Of a stretch of 64,000 bases of DNA, positions 56,086-63,818 are shown piece by piece; within the stretch, counting starts at the first letter, position 1; every line of letters starts with the position of its first letter. The DNA is from Escherichia coli (lineage in GTDB: Bacteria; Pseudomonadota; Gammaproteobacteria; Enterobacterales; Enterobacteriaceae), in NCBI RefSeq assembly GCF_001677475.2, contig NZ_CP015229.1; one strand, 5' to 3'. The notes beneath the pieces were generated by a model. The model was not told the origin of the DNA. It did no database searches and saw nothing but the letters and a program-made list of their open reading frames with translations. The translations under genes and the position numbers were made by a program.

Positions 56086-57465
56086 GTGACGCTCAATACT
56101 TCTCAGGTCAGTTACTATATGACTCAGCGTAAGAAAGGTATAACTCAGCATATCTCGGCCATGAAGGCTGGTATCTCAGTCCGTTCTGGTCGTCGGATCG
56201 AAAAAGGAGAGTGGGCAAAAAACAGTGTTCGGCACTGGCGCACACGCAAAGATCCTCTGGAAGCTGTGTGGGACAGCATGCTTGTTCCTCTGTTGAAAGA
56301 GAGGCCGGCTCTGACACCAACAACTCTACTGGAGATGCTACAGGATAAATATCCCGGCCAGTACCCCAACAGCCTTCGAAGAACAATGCAACGGCGGGTT
56401 CGCGAATGGAAACTACAGTATGGTACAGAGCAGGAGGTCATGTTCCGCCAGCAACATCAGCCCGGCCTGCGAGGCCTGTCGGACTTTACTGAACTGAAAG
56501 GTGTAGTTGTCACCATCGCCGGTAAGTTGTTGGCGCATAAGTTGTATCACTTCCGTCTGGAATGGAGCCACTGGAGCTGGATGCGGGTTGTTCTGGGTGG
56601 TGAGAGCTTCTCTGCTCTGGCTGAAGGCCTGCAGGAAGCCCTCGGACAACTGGGCGGAGTGCCGGTAGAACATAAAACGGACAGCCTGAGGGCAGCATGG
56701 AAACAACAGGGCGAAGATGGACGCCGCGAGCTGACTGAGCGTTATGCTACTCTCTGTCAGCACTACGGAATGCAGGGCGTACACAATAATGCCGGTCGGG
56801 GCCACGAAAATGGCTCGGTTGAAAGTGCCCACGGACATCTGAAAAGGCGTATCTGTCAGGCGCTGATACTGCGGGGCAGTAACGACTTCAGCACCATAGA
56901 AGAATATCAGGCCTTCATCACTCAGCAGGTTATGCGGCACAACCGTAACAATCAGGATCTGGTCAAGGAAGAACGTCTTCATCTGAAACCGCTGCCGCTT
57001 CGTCGCAGTGCTGACTATGATGAGCTGACTGTGAGGGTTAGTCGCAGCAGTACCATCAATGTGAAGCACGTCGTCTACAGCGTACCTTCCCGGCTTGTAG
57101 GTCAACTGTTACGGGTCAGGTTATGGGACGATCGTCTGAGCTGTTACGTTGGCAGCAGCGAGGTCATGAGCTGCCCTCGCGTCAGACCAGAAAAAGGGAA
57201 GACGCGGGCCCGTCGTATCGACTTCCGACATGTGATCGACAGTCTGGCAAAAAAGCCCGGTGCGTTCTGCCATGCAACGCTGAGAAATGACATCCTGCCG
57301 GACGATGAATGGCGGAGGCTGTGGCGTCGCTTATGTAATCATCTGGAGCCCGATATGGCAGGAAGGCTGATGGTACATGCCGGGAAACGTGGATCTGCAC
57401 CGGCTGATGCGCTTCCTGGGTATAAAAGAAAAGGCGTTGCCGGTAGTCAATGTGATACAGCATAA
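56086..57465 (+). CDS. istA: IS21-family transposase IstA
   Basis: 459-aa ORF (GTG 56086; ATG at 56119 also possible); N-terminal HTH-like region and DDE-type catalytic core typical of IstA. Confidence 0.8.
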   Translation: MTLNTSQVSYYMTQRKKGITQHISAMKAGISVRSGRRIEKGEWAKNSVRHWRTRKDPLEAVWDSMLVPLLKERPALTPTTLLEMLQDKYPGQYPNSLRRTMQRRVREWKLQYGTEQEVMFRQQHQPGLRGLSDFTELKGVVVTIAGKLLAHKLYHFRLEWSHWSWMRVVLGGESFSALAEGLQEALGQLGGVPVEHKTDSLRAAWKQQGEDGRRELTERYATLCQHYGMQGVHNNAGRGHENGSVESAHGHLKRRICQALILRGSNDFSTIEEYQAFITQQVMRHNRNNQDLVKEERLHLKPLPLRRSADYDELTVRVSRSSTINVKHVVYSVPSRLVGQLLRVRLWDDRLSCYVGSSEVMSCPRVRPEKGKTRARRIDFRHVIDSLAKKPGAFCHATLRNDILPDDEWRRLWRRLCNHLEPDMAGRLMVHAGKRGSAPADALPGYKRKGVAGSQCDTA

Positions 57466-57510
57466 CCTGAGCAGTTATGAGCAACTACTGCGTGGCAAGG
57501 GAGGTTCGCA

Positions 57511-58266
57511 GTGAGCAATATCCATCACCTTGAACATAGCCTGCGTAAACTACGCCTGACACGAGTTGGAGCTGAATGGCACGCTCTGGAAAAACGAGCG
57601 CTGGCAGAAGGCTGGACACCATCGCGCTATCTTCTGACGCTATGCAATGAAGAACTCCTGTGGCGCGAGAGTGAAAAACTGCGTCGTTATAAAAAGGAGG
57701 CCCGGTTGCCAGTTGCCAAAACGCTGAGCGAATACGACTTCAGTCAGGTGCCGGAACTGAATGGAGCTCAGTTCCGGCAACTCTGTGAAACGACAGACTG
57801 GGTTGATGCAGGAGAAAACGTTCTGCTGTTCGGAGCCAGCGGGTTGGGGAAAAGCCATCTGGCGGCAGCGATCGTGGATGGCGTAGTAGGTCAGGGCTAC
57901 CGGGCCCGGTTCTACAGCGCAGGAGAGCTGTTGCAGGAACTACGTAAAGCCAGAGCTCAGTTGAAACTGAATGAGCTGCTACTGAAACTGGATCGCTACC
58001 GGGTGATAGTGGTGGATGATCTTGGCTATGTCAAACGCGATAGTGCCGAAACGGGTGTGCTGTTCGAGTTAATAGCGCATCGCTATGAACGTGGGAGCCT
58101 GGTGATAACCAGTAACCATCCGTTCAGCATGTGGGGCAGCATCTTCGTGGATGAGACTATGGCGGTGGCTGCGGCAGACAGGCTGATCCATCACGGATAT
58201 ATGTTCGAACTGAAAGGGGAAAGCTACAGGAAAAAGACAGCGAAGGCAGTAACAAGCGCGACTTGA
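57511..58266 (+). CDS. istB: IS21-family helper ATPase IstB
   Basis: 251 aa; Walker A FGASGLGKSHLA and Walker B VIVVDDLGY; GTG start with GGAGG RBS. Confidence 0.85.
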   Translation: MSNIHHLEHSLRKLRLTRVGAEWHALEKRALAEGWTPSRYLLTLCNEELLWRESEKLRRYKKEARLPVAKTLSEYDFSQVPELNGAQFRQLCETTDWVDAGENVLLFGASGLGKSHLAAAIVDGVVGQGYRARFYSAGELLQELRKARAQLKLNELLLKLDRYRVIVVDDLGYVKRDSAETGVLFELIAHRYERGSLVITSNHPFSMWGSIFVDETMAVAAADRLIHHGYMFELKGESYRKKTAKAVTSAT

Positions 58267-58331
58267 TGTCGCCCTGAAGGGTGCGGCCAGTATAGTTGGC
58301 GCGAGTCGGCAAAACTAGTTGACGTCTAATA

Positions 58332-58544
58332 TCGTAAGAGTTCATCATCATCAATCTCGCCTTTGTCGTTTGTAAGCTGGCTAATTGCATTGTTAACCCT
58401 ATTGTCTATCACGCTGGCAACATCATAAAACGCCTCACGGCCTTTACGTTCAACGGGAGTCACTCCCCACTTGTCGAATGCTGTAGCACTTACCCGGCAG
58501 CTTTGCGCCATGGTTTTTTTGTTCATCAGGTGCGATTTCATCAA
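58332..58544 (-). pseudogene. Nu1-like small terminase subunit, N-terminal fragment (gene split by IS insertion)
   Basis: MNKKTMAQSCRVSATAFDKWGVTPVERKGREAFYDVASVI... resembles lambda Nu1 N-terminal winged-helix region; frame runs into the IS and stops two codons inside it. Confidence 0.7.
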
Positions 58545-58639: not shown

Positions 58640-58725
58640 CCCCTGAAAAAGCTCATAAATAGCGAAAAACCGCGAGGTCGCCGCCCCGTAACGGGTCCAT
58701 ATGCCGGAAAGGACCCGTAAAAAAA
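58640..58725 (-). other. Lambda-type cos site (cosQ-cosN-cosB); cosN 12-nt cohesive-end sequence at 58675-58686
   Basis: Reverse strand reads ACGGGTCCTTTCCGGCATATGGACCCGTTACG-GGGCGGCGACCT-CGCGGTTTTTCGCTATTTATGAGC, near-identical to the lambda cos region as recalled; lies immediately upstream of the Nu1-like gene as in lambda. Confidence 0.7.
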
Positions 58726-58741
58726 GCCGGATTTCTCCGGC
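58719..58741 (-). terminator. Rho-independent terminator after the capsid operon
   Basis: Reverse strand stem GGCCGGAGAAATCCGGC followed by TTTTTTT. Confidence 0.5.
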
Positions 58742-58747
58742 CTTGTC

Positions 58748-59161
58748 TCAGATGGTTTTCAGTATGCGATCGATGTCGCCATCATCGCCCGGGTTTCTGC
58801 CAGCGTATGCCATACCAGCTGATACGGCTTTCGGGCTGTGCATGTCCATAAAGTTTTCAAAGGCTGCGGTAAGCTCTGGTGCAACCTTCTGGCGTTCCTG
58901 CTCTATGGTCATGCTAAGGATGCTTTTAGCCGTACCAACATCGATACAAGGCACGTTTGCCATTGCACGTAACAGCGGCTGATAGTCGCCAGATTCATCA
59001 AGCGCCATAATCGCATCAGAGCGCGGCTTGTCCTTCTCTTCCAGGCTGTTAAGTTGATATACGGCCTCGTAGGTTGATAAACCTCTGTCAGCCATTGCCC
59101 GCGCTTCGGCCTTAAATTTACTCGCCAGCGGTAGCGTCATGATGCTTTCATTCGTTGCCAT
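58748..59161 (-). CDS. Hypothetical 137-aa protein, last gene of the capsid operon
   Basis: Tightly packed 12 nt downstream of the D-like gene; no family recognised. Confidence 0.5.
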   Translation of the reverse strand: MATNESIMTLPLASKFKAEARAMADRGLSTYEAVYQLNSLEEKDKPRSDAIMALDESGDYQPLLRAMANVPCIDVGTAKSILSMTIEQERQKVAPELTAAFENFMDMHSPKAVSAGMAYAGRNPGDDGDIDRILKTI

Positions 59162-59173
59162 CGTTCCCTCTGC

Positions 59174-59509
59174 TTATCGGGCCAGTGGCTGAACGGATAC
59201 GCCAGAACCCGCAAAGGCGGCGCATTTTTTCGCATCGGTGTCGACGCTCTCAGGCCAGTTAACGGCGGCGATATTAAATATCCCCGTCTTATAGCACTGT
59301 GCTGATTTCTGCGTCGACGTGTCAACGGGGTACGAGGTCAGATAAACAGCCTTGCCAGATTCCTGACCATCCCACGGCTTAAACTCGCCATTTTCCGCCA
59401 GCATCAGCGGGGTAAATTCCTGAATAACTCCAGCATCAGCGGCAAAATGTACCAGCGTCGTGGATACCTGCTGACTGCCTGCAAATAACTCAATGTATGG
59501 AGTGTTCAT
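59174..59509 (-). CDS. Head decoration protein, lambda gpD-like
   Basis: 111 aa; shared blocks with lambda D as recalled (TPLML, WDG, YKxGxF, WPE, KKxAAFAG); size matches (lambda D 110 aa). Confidence 0.7.
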   Translation of the reverse strand: MNTPYIELFAGSQQVSTTLVHFAADAGVIQEFTPLMLAENGEFKPWDGQESGKAVYLTSYPVDTSTQKSAQCYKTGIFNIAAVNWPESVDTDAKKCAAFAGSGVSVQPLAR

Positions 59510-59520
59510 AGAATCCCCCG

Positions 59521-60576
59521 TTAAGCAATTTTGACGGTAACAAATTTGCGAATATCTGCCGGTACCGGCTGCGGTGCGCTGTGCGTCTGCACGTACTCAA
59601 TCGCCGGATCGCCATCCTCAATCCAGTTTTTCGGGTAGTACATGTTTTGCGTTGCGCCAGTTCTTACCGCTTCCGGATCCATAATCGCACCATAGGCCAC
59701 CAGCCCTTTATTGTTAGTGTTGCCCAGGACAAGCAAATCAGGCTCAAGGAAATATTTTTCGGTGCCATCGCTGTCGGTGTATTTGCCGGAATAGACGATA
59801 AGGGCCAGATCACCCAGATAGCCTTTAAAGCTCACCACTTCGCCCAGGTTTTTACAGGCCAGCTCTGCGGCGGATTCTGAACCACGGGAAAGATCGTACA
59901 GTTCACGGAATTTTTTAAAGCTGCGTAACGTGCGCCATACCTCAGCGCCCATAATCATGACGTTGGCGGGGCAACCAGCCTGATCGGTGTATAGTTCGAT
60001 GTCATAGATTGGATCGTGTGTTTCCTTATCTGCCTCAGACCACTTTTTGCCCGATCCCTGCGTAATGATGTTTTTAGTCGGGATTTTCCAGTCGATTTCG
60101 TATCTATTTATTCCTTCGCCCTCAATGATGTTTTTTCCGGTCGTGACCGCATTCACCGCCAGCCATTCTATGCGAGCTTTAATAGCGTTTACCTGGCGGC
60201 GCATGTTGCCAGTAATCAGGCGCATACGGCGATAAGTTGGATCGTTAAGCTGTGCCGGATCTTCTCCAGCCATGCGCATGATGGTTTTTGATGGATCGAT
60301 TTCGTGTTTTGGTTTCATATAGCCAGGGCGGATAGTGCTTGTTTCGTACCCTTTATCGCGCTGAACCTGACTCCCCACCATAGGCGAACAAAAAGCCGAC
60401 ATGGTGACTTCTTCAATATCCAGGGTATCTAACATGATGTCCTGCGTGTTGAAGGTTGCCACGTTCGGGAAAAACAGCGACGTAAACAGCGGACTGAATT
60501 TAAATTCCGAAATATCCCCACGATTCAGGTACGCGAAAAGCTGGTTAGTGTTAAGTGCCGTTGCTTTGCCTGTCAT
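59521..60576 (-). CDS. Major capsid protein, lambda gpE-like
   Basis: 351 aa; blocks FKFSPLFTSLFF and PGYMKPKHEIDP, YPKNWIEDGDPA, SAPQP match lambda E motifs (FKFDPLFLRLFF, PGYVKPKHEVNP, YPKNWVTTGDPA, SAPLM) as recalled; similar length. Confidence 0.85.
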   Translation of the reverse strand: MTGKATALNTNQLFAYLNRGDISEFKFSPLFTSLFFPNVATFNTQDIMLDTLDIEEVTMSAFCSPMVGSQVQRDKGYETSTIRPGYMKPKHEIDPSKTIMRMAGEDPAQLNDPTYRRMRLITGNMRRQVNAIKARIEWLAVNAVTTGKNIIEGEGINRYEIDWKIPTKNIITQGSGKKWSEADKETHDPIYDIELYTDQAGCPANVMIMGAEVWRTLRSFKKFRELYDLSRGSESAAELACKNLGEVVSFKGYLGDLALIVYSGKYTDSDGTEKYFLEPDLLVLGNTNNKGLVAYGAIMDPEAVRTGATQNMYYPKNWIEDGDPAIEYVQTHSAPQPVPADIRKFVTVKIA

Positions 60577-60782
60577 TATTCACCCCCATGAGTCTGATTC
60601 ATGCCCAGCGCCGCGCGTAAATAGGCGCGTACCTGCCAGCCTGTTGACGGCTCAACCATCGCCAGCGGCTCAAGTCCTGCCGCAATGCCTGCTTTTACGT
60701 TCTGCTGGTGGCGTTCCTTGAGCGCCTCCACGATGTCTGGGCTTATGTAAACTGTCACCCCGCCTTTTTTCTCTTCTGCCAT
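60576..60782 (-). CDS. Hypothetical 68-aa protein, first gene of the capsid operon, translationally coupled to the capsid gene
   Basis: ORF 60576-60815 from GTG; better start at internal ATG (MAEEKKGG) with AGAGGA RBS; stop TAA overlaps capsid ATG by 1 nt. Confidence 0.45.
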   Translation of the reverse strand: MAEEKKGGVTVYISPDIVEALKERHQQNVKAGIAAGLEPLAMVEPSTGWQVRAYLRAALGMNQTHGGE

Positions 60783-60820
60783 AGTCGGAAATTCCTCTTT
60801 GACGTTAAAAATCACAACTG

Positions 60821-60852
60821 GATGTTCATCCAGTTGTGATTATAATCATGAT
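60821..60852. promoter_or_regulatory. Perfect 14-bp-arm palindrome upstream of the capsid operon (candidate operator; contains CTG-N10-CAG)
   Basis: AATCACAACTGGATG-TTCA-TCCAGTTGTGATT about 40-70 bp upstream of the operon start. Confidence 0.4.
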
Positions 60853-60993
60853 TTCATTTTACGCAATAATGTTGAGTTGTGTTGCAAATTGTGAAATGAT
60901 TTCCGGCAACAGTAGTCACCATACTGTTAGATAAAAGCCTCATATGCAAAAGCCCGATAAGACCCTCTGACCTTATCGGGCTTTTTTTGGGGC

Positions 60994-61018
60994 ATAAAAA
61001 AGCCGGACTTCTCCGGCT
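60994..61018 (-). terminator. Rho-independent terminator after the SSB-like gene
   Basis: Reverse strand AGCCGGAGAAGTCCGGCT followed by TTTTTT; adjacent second hairpin (60952-60988) with T-run on the + strand. Confidence 0.5.
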
Positions 61019-61033
61019 TCTGTTACTCGTTGC

Positions 61034-61456
61034 TTAAAACGGTATGTTATCCCCGTACGGATCATCGTTACCCGCCTGTTGTTTTGCCCTGTTCAGTGCG
61101 TCAGTAGCCTGCCCTTGCTGGCCTTTTTTGCCGCCCGGTCGCGCCGTTCTCGCACTGATTACGCTGTCTGCGATAACCTGCCAGCCCTGCCGCGTTTCGC
61201 CGTTCTGGCCTGTCCACTGGCTTACCTGCATGTTACCCGCCACGCTCACCAGTTCGCCTTTGTGGTGTTTTGCCAGTGCGTCGGCCTGTCTGCCAAACGC
61301 CAGGACGGATAACCACATCGTCGCCGTTCCGTCATCTGCCTGGCTGCACGGAAGGGGGACCGCCATACTAGCCATCGTCATTTGTGTACCCTTGCTGGTG
61401 GTCTTTAACTGCGGGTCAGCCACCAGCCGCCCGTAAGCCGCTATCTGTGCTGTCAT
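61034..61456 (-). CDS. SSB-like single-stranded-DNA-binding protein (divergent OB fold with conserved acidic C-terminal tail)
   Basis: 140 aa; Gly/Gln-rich linker and C-terminus DDPYGDNIPF resembling the SSB tail (DFDDDIPF). Confidence 0.55.
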   Translation of the reverse strand: MTAQIAAYGRLVADPQLKTTSKGTQMTMASMAVPLPCSQADDGTATMWLSVLAFGRQADALAKHHKGELVSVAGNMQVSQWTGQNGETRQGWQVIADSVISARTARPGGKKGQQGQATDALNRAKQQAGNDDPYGDNIPF

Positions 61457-61740: not shown

Positions 61741-61980
61741 ACCCTTCACCTGTTCACCTTTTGATATTTTCCATTTAAATTCATACTGTTAAGGGGTGAA
61801 CAGTTTCACAAAAACTATTCACCAACTGTTCACCACTGTTCACCCTTGAAGCTCAATAAACAACCAAAAAGGTGAACAGTGAATAGTTTGGTGAATAGTT
61901 CATAAATAACTGTTCACCCTATAATATACTGATATAAAAGATATTTATGACAGGGTGAACAGTGGTGAACAGTTATTCCA
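61741..61980. repeat. Iteron array: at least 8 perfect copies of TGTTCACC (both orientations) plus degenerate copies; candidate replication origin
   Basis: Direct reading: CCTGTTCACC, GGGGTGAACAGT, ACTGTTCACCACTGTTCACCC, AGGTGAACAGT, ACTGTTCACCC, GGGTGAACAGTGGTGAACAGT in AT-rich context between the helicase and SSB genes. Confidence 0.75.
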
Positions 61981-61985
61981 TAAGT

Positions 61986-63818
61986 TTAATTTTTGCTATC
62001 GTCATTAGTGACTGATACACATGATGGCATCCAGTCTTCTGATTCCTCCGTCAGTGTCACGTTTGAACGTAAACCGTGCTTCGTTTTCCGTTTTATATAC
62101 TCCCTGCCATATTCCGCCATTGCCCCAGGCATATCTTTACCGAAGCGCGTCAGTGTTACAGGTTTACCAAACCCATGAGCCCTCATATAAGCCAGATAGG
62201 CATGATAGAGATACCTGCGCGGGCTGAATGGCACAATTTCAGCATTACCCACTAACAGGCCATCACACATTACCGACGCCATGAGATAGCCGCAGAAGTC
62301 CACCAGCGAATCCCCCTCTCGCTTTATCGCCAGTGCTTCTTCAGATTTCTGCTGCTCATATAACAGGCGTCTGGCTTCGTCCTGGTCAGCAAACCTTGTA
62401 AGCAGATGGCGAATCACTACCGCCAGCTCACCTTCTATTTTTTCCGCCAGCATCGGATCGCGTTCGTTCTCCGGTACAACTTCCGAAAAATTGAATATCA
62501 CCCGACGACGTGAGATCCCCCCGCTGCGGTCACTGAATGACATGGCGTTATTGTTAACCGCCAGCACTACTGCCGGAATACGCGTTGAGTAGGGGGCTTT
62601 GTGTTTCGGGTCAATTGCCACCTTGTCACCGCCTGTAATGGCCTTAATTCCTGCCCCATCACCAGCGTAGCGGGTCATATCCGGCATGATAATCAGCGAA
62701 AAGCCAACCACTAACGCGCGTTCCCTTGCATCTTCCAGCGCCTTCATGCTTGCCGATACTGTGTTGGCCTTACCCGCCAGCATGGTGCAAATCTCCGCCA
62801 TCACGCTTTTACCACTTCCCCCTGGACCTGTTACCTCAATGAATAACTGCCAGTCGTACCGGTTCGCCAGCACCATGAATAATGCAGCCAGTACGCGATC
62901 CGCCTTGCGGTCATTCTCAGCCACCGAACGGCGTAACCACTTCCAGAAATTCGGCGCATGTGTTGCCAGCGTTTCCCCCTCTGCTGGTGGGCTGAAAGGT
63001 AATTCACTGGCAATTAACAACCAGTCGTTTTTGTTATGCTCCCGAAAATTACCTGTTCTGGTATCAAATACCCCGTTACTGAATCCAATCAGGTTACGGG
63101 CTGTATTCCCCATTACAGGCAAACTTAACTTCATGGTATCGACCGCCGATTTAATGGCGTTCTGCGAATAGCTGATCTCCGCATCAATGAAAATCTGCGC
63201 CATAGCACGCTGTAACTCTTTATCCTGAACCGGCTCCCATACAACGCCGTTGTAATGGTGAACAGTGTCAGAGTCAGCATGAATCGCCAGTTCACCGCCA
63301 TAATGTGCCAGGAGAACTTCGCCGCGTTGACTTGCTCCCATCTGGTTAAGCGCCAGTGATGAAGCGTTATCGTCTTTTACCCGCTCTTTTTTCTTTACAG
63401 GCAGTTCAACTACCTTTTTCTTTTCCGCCAGCTCTGCCCGTTCACGTTCCAGATATTCGCGCCAGTTCTCCCGTTTCTGGCTGTGCATTCCTTCAGGATA
63501 ATAATCAGCATCCCTGACACCTGCCGCTGCCAGTTTCTGCCCGATGGTATTAACAAGCCCCGGACGCAATAACCCCGCCTGGTAGAGACGCACACGATAG
63601 CGTCCGTCCGGTACGATTTGCAGGTTGTCCAGTTCGGCAAGTTGTTGCTCTCCAAGCCAGACAGGAGGCACGTTATCGCCAGCCAGTCGCCCGTCCTGTT
63701 CCTGCCACTGCTTCGCATGTGCCCACGCATCACTACCCGCAAAAATGATGACTTCCGTCATTTTGTCACGTGGCTGGTGTTTTAAATTTGGCGCTTTTTT
63801 CATTTCTGCTCTCTCCAC
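61986..63818 (-). CDS. Replication initiator/helicase, SF3 (D5-like) family, P4 alpha-type
   Basis: 610 aa; Walker A GPGGSGKS in a D5/SF3-helicase-like core; sits next to the iteron array; start may be at a downstream Met. Confidence 0.75.
   Translation of the reverse strand: MERAEMKKAPNLKHQPRDKMTEVIIFAGSDAWAHAKQWQEQDGRLAGDNVPPVWLGEQQLAELDNLQIVPDGRYRVRLYQAGLLRPGLVNTIGQKLAAAGVRDADYYPEGMHSQKRENWREYLERERAELAEKKKVVELPVKKKERVKDDNASSLALNQMGASQRGEVLLAHYGGELAIHADSDTVHHYNGVVWEPVQDKELQRAMAQIFIDAEISYSQNAIKSAVDTMKLSLPVMGNTARNLIGFSNGVFDTRTGNFREHNKNDWLLIASELPFSPPAEGETLATHAPNFWKWLRRSVAENDRKADRVLAALFMVLANRYDWQLFIEVTGPGGSGKSVMAEICTMLAGKANTVSASMKALEDARERALVVGFSLIIMPDMTRYAGDGAGIKAITGGDKVAIDPKHKAPYSTRIPAVVLAVNNNAMSFSDRSGGISRRRVIFNFSEVVPENERDPMLAEKIEGELAVVIRHLLTRFADQDEARRLLYEQQKSEEALAIKREGDSLVDFCGYLMASVMCDGLLVGNAEIVPFSPRRYLYHAYLAYMRAHGFGKPVTLTRFGKDMPGAMAEYGREYIKRKTKHGLRSNVTLTEESEDWMPSCVSVTNDDSKN

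Follow-up and report, generated by a model that had tools for sequence, protein, structure and literature searches.

Operon I in the pathogenicity islands of Staphylococcus aureus (SaPIs) is controlled by the host repressor LexA (Ubeda et al. 2007, Mol Microbiol 65:41, as cited in PMC6092414 and PMC6739421). Host LexA sites are also found in other mobile elements, on control genes of temperate phages and satellites, for example with the tum-type antirepressors of phages related to 186 and Fels-2 (PSOSP survey, PMC12527982). These phage SOS boxes allow an element to sense DNA damage without a cleavable repressor of its own. Here we describe what we read as a comparable arrangement in a 64,000-nucleotide stretch of the Escherichia coli contig NZ_CP015229.1, which we refer to as the window. 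It carries a phage-inducible chromosomal island (PICI) of the EcCICFT073 type, and in this island a perfect palindrome overlaps the promoter of a cassette of capsid-like genes. We propose that the inner 20 base pairs (bp) of this palindrome, at 60816–60835, are an operator for E. coli LexA.

Operon I and the cassette in the window share their basic layout: both belong to PICIs and are morphogenesis- or packaging-side operons, located downstream of the replication origin (ori), with a host-type LexA box at the promoter. In both cases the box would link expression to SOS, the signal by which helper prophages are induced as well, although for the window this regulation is a prediction. The two systems differ in host and in LexA motif, which is CTG-N10-CAG in E. 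coli and CGAAC-N4-GTTCG in S. aureus. Their genes are unrelated (lambda gpE-, gpD- and Nu3-like in the window, terS, cpm and pti in SaPIs), terminators flank and insulate the window cassette, with rpp (terS-like) apparently outside it, and the window box is not found in PICIs that combine the same ssb module with other late modules. Unlike the SOS boxes of phage and satellite control genes, the box in the window fronts structural capsid-like genes instead of a lysis-lysogeny switch gene. The E. coli chromosomal box CGCTGGATATCTATCCAGCA has the CTGG-N8-CCAG skeleton in common with the window box, which differs by its location in a mobile element and by complementarity that is 6 bp longer on each side. 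In the searchable literature, with subscription journals outside its coverage, LexA is linked to E. coli PICIs solely via the SaPI citation. Our best reading is that the window contains a LexA operator on a Gram-negative PICI, analogous to that of SaPI operon I and unreported in this literature.

The palindrome occupies positions 60810–60841 and is a perfect inverted repeat, AATCACAACTGGATGTTCATCCAGTTGTGATT, with arms of 15 nucleotides (nt) around a 2-nt centre. Perfect inverted repeats of this quality (arms of at least 15 nt, spacer of at most 10 nt) are expected about 6.6e-4 times per 64-kb window of such composition, and none of 100 shuffled controls gave a comparable one. A first-pass annotation of the window had the sequence and its perfect symmetry right but placed it at 60821–60852, a shift of +11; its description as 14-bp arms around TTCA is equivalent to ours. 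It also rightly put the site ahead of the capsid operon, but the minus-strand orientation of this operon had gone unnoted. Read on the minus strand, the element consists of AATCAC, the inner 20-mer AACTGGATGAACATCCAGTT, and GTGATT, followed by TTT. Its 3' end on this strand lies 27 nt ahead of the ATG of orf68 (60782), and the capsid gene starts at 60576. The CTG-N10-CAG skeleton that the same annotation had pointed out is indeed present, as CTGGATGTTCATCCAG at 60818–60833 within the 20-bp quasi-palindrome. The idea that other copies of the palindrome half-site form a regulon was rejected, as none occur in the window beyond chance.

To score the inner 20-mer we used the LexA heterology index (HI). 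The underlying matrix was recovered by linear regression on 145 published sequence/HI pairs (PMC12527982, Table S1), and its root-mean-square error of 2e-5 on these values amounts to exact recovery. The supplement of this survey gives the HI of all CTG-N10-CAG sites in E. coli K-12 (PMC12527982). With the recovered matrix, the window 20-mer scores HI 6.81. For CGCTGGATATCTATCCAGCA, a verified CTGG/CCAG box with experimentally shown LexA binding, which we take to be the ruvAB box, the matrix returns the listed HI of 9.19; the window box is closer to consensus. The matrix also reproduces the listed HI of 4.31 for what is presumably the recA box, and TACTGTATATTCATTCAGGT, which we assume to be the uvrA/ssb box, has an HI of 6.98, near that of the window box. 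Among experimentally tested boxes, all 19 with HI ≤12.6 bind LexA and none of the five with HI ≥15.5 does (PMC12527982). The window box falls within the range in which every tested box binds, and values of 5 to 7 are typical of validated SOS-dependent prophages (PMC12527982, Table S4). The second-best of the 32 skeleton sites in the window has an HI of 14.2, that is, 7 units worse. The chance expectation for sites as good as the window box is 0.002 in 64 kb and 0.14 in 4.6 Mb, and in about 600 kb of island loci the promoter box is the sole box with HI ≤11, apart from one unrelated site.

The 20-mer begins 3 nt past the consensus −10 hexamer TATAAT of a promoter that we call P1, and the full palindrome overlaps this hexamer. 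At the −10 position, 39 of 43 distinct upstream variants have TATAAT or TAAAAT, and 38 of the 43 have TTGCxx at −35. The usual distance of 7 ± 1 nt from the −10 would place the transcription start in the left half of the inner 20-mer, and the box would span about −3 to +17 relative to this predicted start. We estimate a probability of roughly 80% that the inner 20 bp are a functional E. coli-type LexA operator (SOS box) on the sigma-70 promoter of the cassette, TTGCGT-16-TATAAT. This estimate joins a computed site, score, position relative to the promoter hexamers and conservation to an inferred LexA binding, repression, transcription start and operon extent. According to the proposed mechanism, a LexA dimer on the box would block RNA polymerase in undamaged cells. 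In the SOS response, RecA-stimulated self-cleavage of LexA would derepress the cassette and, since the SOS signal also induces lambdoid helper prophages, expression of the cassette would coincide with helper induction.

For comparison across relatives we assembled 85 distinct regions spanning the promoter and orf68; their sources were IMG/VR loci, complete genomes of E. coli and contigs located by way of their proteins. The box is kept in 76 of these regions, from E. coli, Salmonella and Pluralibacter, with HI between 5.41 and 9.86 (median 6.81). The six CTGGAT/ATCCAG core pairs hardly change among 19 distinct 32-mers: four are invariant and the remaining two differ in one variant each. Arm-to-arm mismatches cluster at the outer positions. 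Two core substitutions recur in E. coli, CCAG to ACAG (HI 5.41) and ATG to ATA (HI 6.27); both bring the site nearer to the LexA consensus and break the hairpin. The prototype EcCICFT073 has a 20-mer identical to that of the window. In the Salmonella island the outer arms are non-complementary and a box with HI 9.86 is still present. The box of Pluralibacter gergoviae (HI 8.44) lies 12 bp further downstream from the −10, and palindromy is limited to the 20-mer. Flanks that vary freely around a near-constant core, and tolerance of asymmetric changes that approach the consensus are, as judged from these alignments, the pattern of a sequence-specific protein site and not of a structural hairpin. 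The conserved element appears to be the inner 20 bp only; the "long" palindrome is not conserved. The cross-genus evidence consists of one Salmonella and one Pluralibacter lineage, both from protein look-ups, as two scans of species-representative genomes, with orf68 and with capsid alignments, gave no relatives. One further contig contains the box with a 1-nt insertion. In one IMG/VR locus (L063) the central 4 nt are inverted (GTTC, not GAAC) and the rest is unchanged, as if the centre had been flipped.

The first-pass annotation had suggested a LexA-like operator and had named among its checks a score against a LexA matrix, with a poor score counting against the idea, and a comparison with lambdoid CI/Cro sites. 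The LexA score is good, and together with the overlap with the promoter and the conservation of the box it gives the suggestion computational support. The second comparison gave no support. We rejected a lambdoid CI/Cro operator (17 bp, TATCACCGC-type half-site), as the best match reaches 9 of 17 positions with the wrong half-site spacing; the six lambda operators score 11 to 15 of 17 on the same consensus.

Several observations weigh against control of the cassette by LexA. The −35 hexamer of P1 is weak, with 3 of 6 consensus positions, and a consensus promoter scan with a minimum of 4/6 per −35 did not call P1. Perfect complementarity exceeds the LexA 20-mer by 6 bp at either end, and among the 19 variants four of the outer pairs have changed on both sides; LexA gives no account of either feature. 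The box is absent in seven type-B variants, which have TAAAAT as −10 and a distinct orf68 allele, and in the lineage of locus L093. Because this sister promoter lineage does without the box, control through it would seem to be dispensable. PICIs with the same ssb module but other late modules have no box either. Since both box-less lineages and these ssb-sharing islands exist, LexA control appears to be an attribute of this promoter and cassette variant and not of PICIs generally. According to PMC6092414, Gram-negative PICIs are transcribed unidirectionally, EcCICFT073 is induced via helper-dependent AlpA, with alpA being SOS-independent, and deletion of c1499 or c1500 has no phenotype. The same paper reports neither a role nor a regulation for these capsid-like genes.

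Some of the promoters without a canonical layout may record how the box came and went. In Pluralibacter (L087/L088, 3940–4000) a relic of the left arm, AATCAGAACTG, is followed by 12 inserted bases and then by a full LexA box. The type-B E. coli promoters (L016 and L094–L096) resemble this layout with a decayed box. This resemblance, together with the relic and the insertion, suggests that the box was gained or lost through small rearrangements.

The first-pass annotation had also mentioned a terminator. An alternative view is that the palindrome acts mainly as RNA, with a hairpin and a U-run that terminate or attenuate transcripts coming from upstream, either by read-through from the replication module or from a second promoter-like sequence, P2. 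In this way the capsid cassette would be insulated, or its expression gated through antitermination. Folded as RNA, the full palindrome reaches −20.1 kcal/mol (z = −6.0) and is followed by U5–U7; only 4–5 of its 14–15 pairs are G-C. In EcCICFT073 the consensus scan makes a terminator-like call at the palindrome (14 pairs, tail TTTTAAGT). It also calls P2 there, as TTCATA-18-TATCAT, at a distance of 25 nt upstream from the hairpin; no such terminator call is made in the window. The changes on both sides of four outer pairs amount to modest covariation, with a score that 2 of 500 shuffles reached in a control that is lenient for related sequences. However, the stem core is almost invariant and shows no covariation, 9 of the 19 variants have no pairing at outer pair 6/27, substitutions that open the stem and improve the LexA match are tolerated, and outside E. 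coli just a 7-bp stem remains, which coincides with the LexA box. The left arm shares positions with the conserved −10, and most of it would remain untranscribed from P1. The −10 of P2 is poorly conserved among the distinct upstream variants. Moreover, two much stronger canonical terminators, T1 and T2 (−41 kcal/mol together), already stand 100–180 nt upstream of the palindrome. A search of Rfam gave no family match at the palindrome and sub-threshold matches only, on the upstream terminators. We consider a mainly RNA-based function unlikely, in either of its two forms.

The outer arms deserve a comment of their own. In E. coli, three variants form perfect palindromes of 32 bp that differ in their outer arms (CAC/GTG, CAT/ATG and TAT/ATA). 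In a fourth outer-arm type, CAGGAC/GTCCTG, complementarity is broken by a single mismatch, at the innermost pair. When replication switches template, quasipalindrome correction can produce such concerted, seemingly compensatory changes without selection. The outer arms are probably either incidental, for example through this process, or in a secondary hairpin role; we regard the secondary hairpin function as the minority possibility.

It is also conceivable, though quite unlikely in our view, that the two functions form a double lock in which the LexA operator is embedded in a leader terminator. Transcripts from P2 would meet the −10-like TATAAT as a pause signal and then the hairpin with its U-run. 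Expression of the cassette would then require removal of LexA by SOS and/or modification of RNA polymerase by a Q-like antiterminator of the helper. A −10-like sequence in the early transcribed region is a sigma-dependent pause signal, as at lambdoid PR'. The likeness to lambda PR'-tR' with Q antitermination is one of layout only: P2, an early-transcribed −10-like hexamer, and a hairpin with a U-run before late genes. In contrast to PR'-tR', the window promoter is without similarity to any phage record, P2 is poorly conserved, and there is no evidence of a Q-binding element. A blastn search of the promoter region against 50,697 phage records gave no match, and a phage origin of the promoter was rejected. 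If true, the double lock would mean that the satellite taps the late-gene antitermination of its helper.

Could the long palindrome be the operator of another dimeric regulator, such as an island protein (for example Orf68 as an autorepressor) or a repressor or activator of the helper phage? The complementarity that outruns the LexA 20-mer, the three perfect 32-bp variants with different outer arms and the fourth arm type speak for this idea. Orf68 has a predicted beta-alpha-alpha (strand-helix-helix) layout (AlphaFold2 pLDDT 71) and weak, non-significant Pfam matches to RHH_1 and BrnA (E 0.1–0.2); fold searches with Orf68 gave no significant match. Orf68 might bind DNA, but its putative reading strand is constant, unlike the variable outer arms. 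We consider an operator of this kind very unlikely.

A DNA-binding Orf68 would have a better candidate target in another motif of the same promoter. The inverted repeat ATTGCA-N5-TGCAAT is present in two degenerate copies, 30 bp apart, at 60851–60867 and 60881–60897, over and upstream of the −35. It is perfect in type-B islands (ATTGCAAAAAATGCAAT), occurs twice in L093 and is shared by E. coli, Salmonella and Pluralibacter as a conserved motif, also in lineages that lack the LexA box. A second regulator, possibly Orf68, may have its site here. The Orf68 allele tracks the status of the box, with MAEEKK... where the box is present and MGTQK... where it is absent.

That the palindrome is a non-functional accident, for example a product of replication template switching without any regulatory role, would agree with its absence from some lineages and with the lack of a reported phenotype for the cassette genes (PMC6092414), but is highly improbable given how rarely chance would yield the palindrome (about 7e-4 expected) or the HI score (0.002 expected), a LexA-box core kept across three genera, and variants that all lie in the LexA-binding HI range.

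The island around the LexA box candidate contains int, a helix-turn-helix/alpA-like gene, an icd-like gene, DUF4222, a D5-type primase, ori iterons, ssb, the capsid cassette, lambda cosN and a Nu1-like rpp. EcCICFT073, which is located in CFT073 adjoining phoPQ, has the same architecture and promoter. The relevant genes are all on the minus strand, and Table 1 lists the features in the order in which this strand is read. Between the terminator T2 and orf68 lie the promoter region of about 100 bp, the palindrome, the T-run and AAGAGG.

Table 1. Features of the PICI in the window, in minus-strand order
Feature	Position	Strand	Remarks
D5-type primase	61986–63818	minus	
Presumed replication origin, direct and inverted GGTGAACAGT iterons	61750–61977		between primase gene and next open reading frame (ORF)
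81-amino-acid (aa) ORF and SSB-like gene	61034–61456	minus	
Terminator hairpin T1 (GCCGGAGAAGUCCGGC + U6)	60996–61021	minus	just 3' of ssb-like gene
Strong terminator hairpin T2	60948–60985	minus	between ssb-like gene and promoter
Alternative promoter-like P2, TTCACA-18-CATTAT	60866–60895	minus	consensus scan; would transcribe through palindrome
−35 hexamer TTGCGT of P1	60861–60866	minus	16-bp spacer; 3/6 consensus, TTGC conserved
−10 hexamer TATAAT of P1	60839–60844	minus	last 3 nt (AAT) are first 3 nt of palindrome
Perfect palindrome, 15-nt arms and 2-nt centre	60810–60841		inverted-repeat scan; chance ~7e-4
Candidate LexA (SOS) box, 20-mer AACTGGATGAACATCCAGTT	60816–60835	read on minus	HI 6.81, recovered HI matrix
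T-run directly 3' of palindrome	60807–60811	minus	5 T here, 6–7 in most relatives
Ribosome-binding site AAGAGG of orf68	60794–60799	minus	read from sequence
orf68, first cassette gene, 68 codons (phrog_3255, no assigned function)	60576–60782	minus	weak ribbon-helix-helix hints
Lambda gpE-like major capsid protein (PF03864, E 3e-52)	59521–60576	minus	
Lambda gpD-like head decoration protein (PF02924)	59174–59509	minus	
137-aa protein (phrog_1999)	58748–59161	minus	weak match to C-terminal Nu3-like part of head maturation protease
Intrinsic terminator GCCGGA-GAAA-UCCGGC + U7	58719–58741	minus	directly 3' of 137-aa gene; probable unit end
Exact lambda cosN GGGCGGCGACCT, island cos site	58675–58686	minus	between terminator of 137-aa gene and Nu1-like rpp
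Nu1-like terS/rpp remnant	58326–58544		apparently broken after 72 codons by IS21 element
IS21-family element (istA 459 aa, istB 251 aa)	56086–58266		apparently cuts terS/rpp

We infer that the "capsid operon" is a terminator-bracketed PICI cassette of four genes (orf68, gpE-like, gpD-like and Nu3-like). The gene for packaging redirection and interference is rpp (PMC6739421). That a terminator follows the 137-aa gene points to rpp as a separate transcription unit, apparently outside the capsid cassette. Since the IS21 element apparently cut the Nu1-like terS/rpp after 72 codons, the island copy in the window is probably defective for packaging redirection. Two other roles for the palindrome were discarded: a cos site or packaging signal, as the exact lambda cosN sits elsewhere, and a replication origin, as the iterons have a separate location (Table 1).

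One of the island copies in E. coli strain A33 is identical to the region. At 80–99% identity, related sequence is found in 462 of 5426 complete E. coli genomes (about 8%), with 362 of them covering at least 80% of the region; these counts refer to matches to the region, not to the box itself. Strain A33 (NZ_CP028742.1, 4256597–4281077; our locus L001) shows at least three tandem copies of the island of about 10.6 kb, with many frameshift-flagged genes, and the copies are either a real array or an error-prone assembly. In three other loci, L174, L178 and L190, an ssb-like gene with 97–100% identity is joined to entirely different late modules. These encode a 381-aa uncharacterised protein in L174, a different gpE-like capsid without orf68 in L178, and a basic 174-aa protein with a Nu1-like terS in L190. 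The joining of near-identical ssb-like genes to different late modules shows modular shuffling at this junction.

If the inner 20 bp of the palindrome are indeed a LexA operator, of what looks like a high-affinity type, part of the island would sense DNA damage of the host directly, independently of AlpA. This would parallel operon I of the staphylococcal SaPIs and point to an apparent convergence between unrelated satellites. The box also hints at when the unexplained capsid genes may be expressed, and provides a prediction that is directly testable in the existing EcCICFT073 model system.
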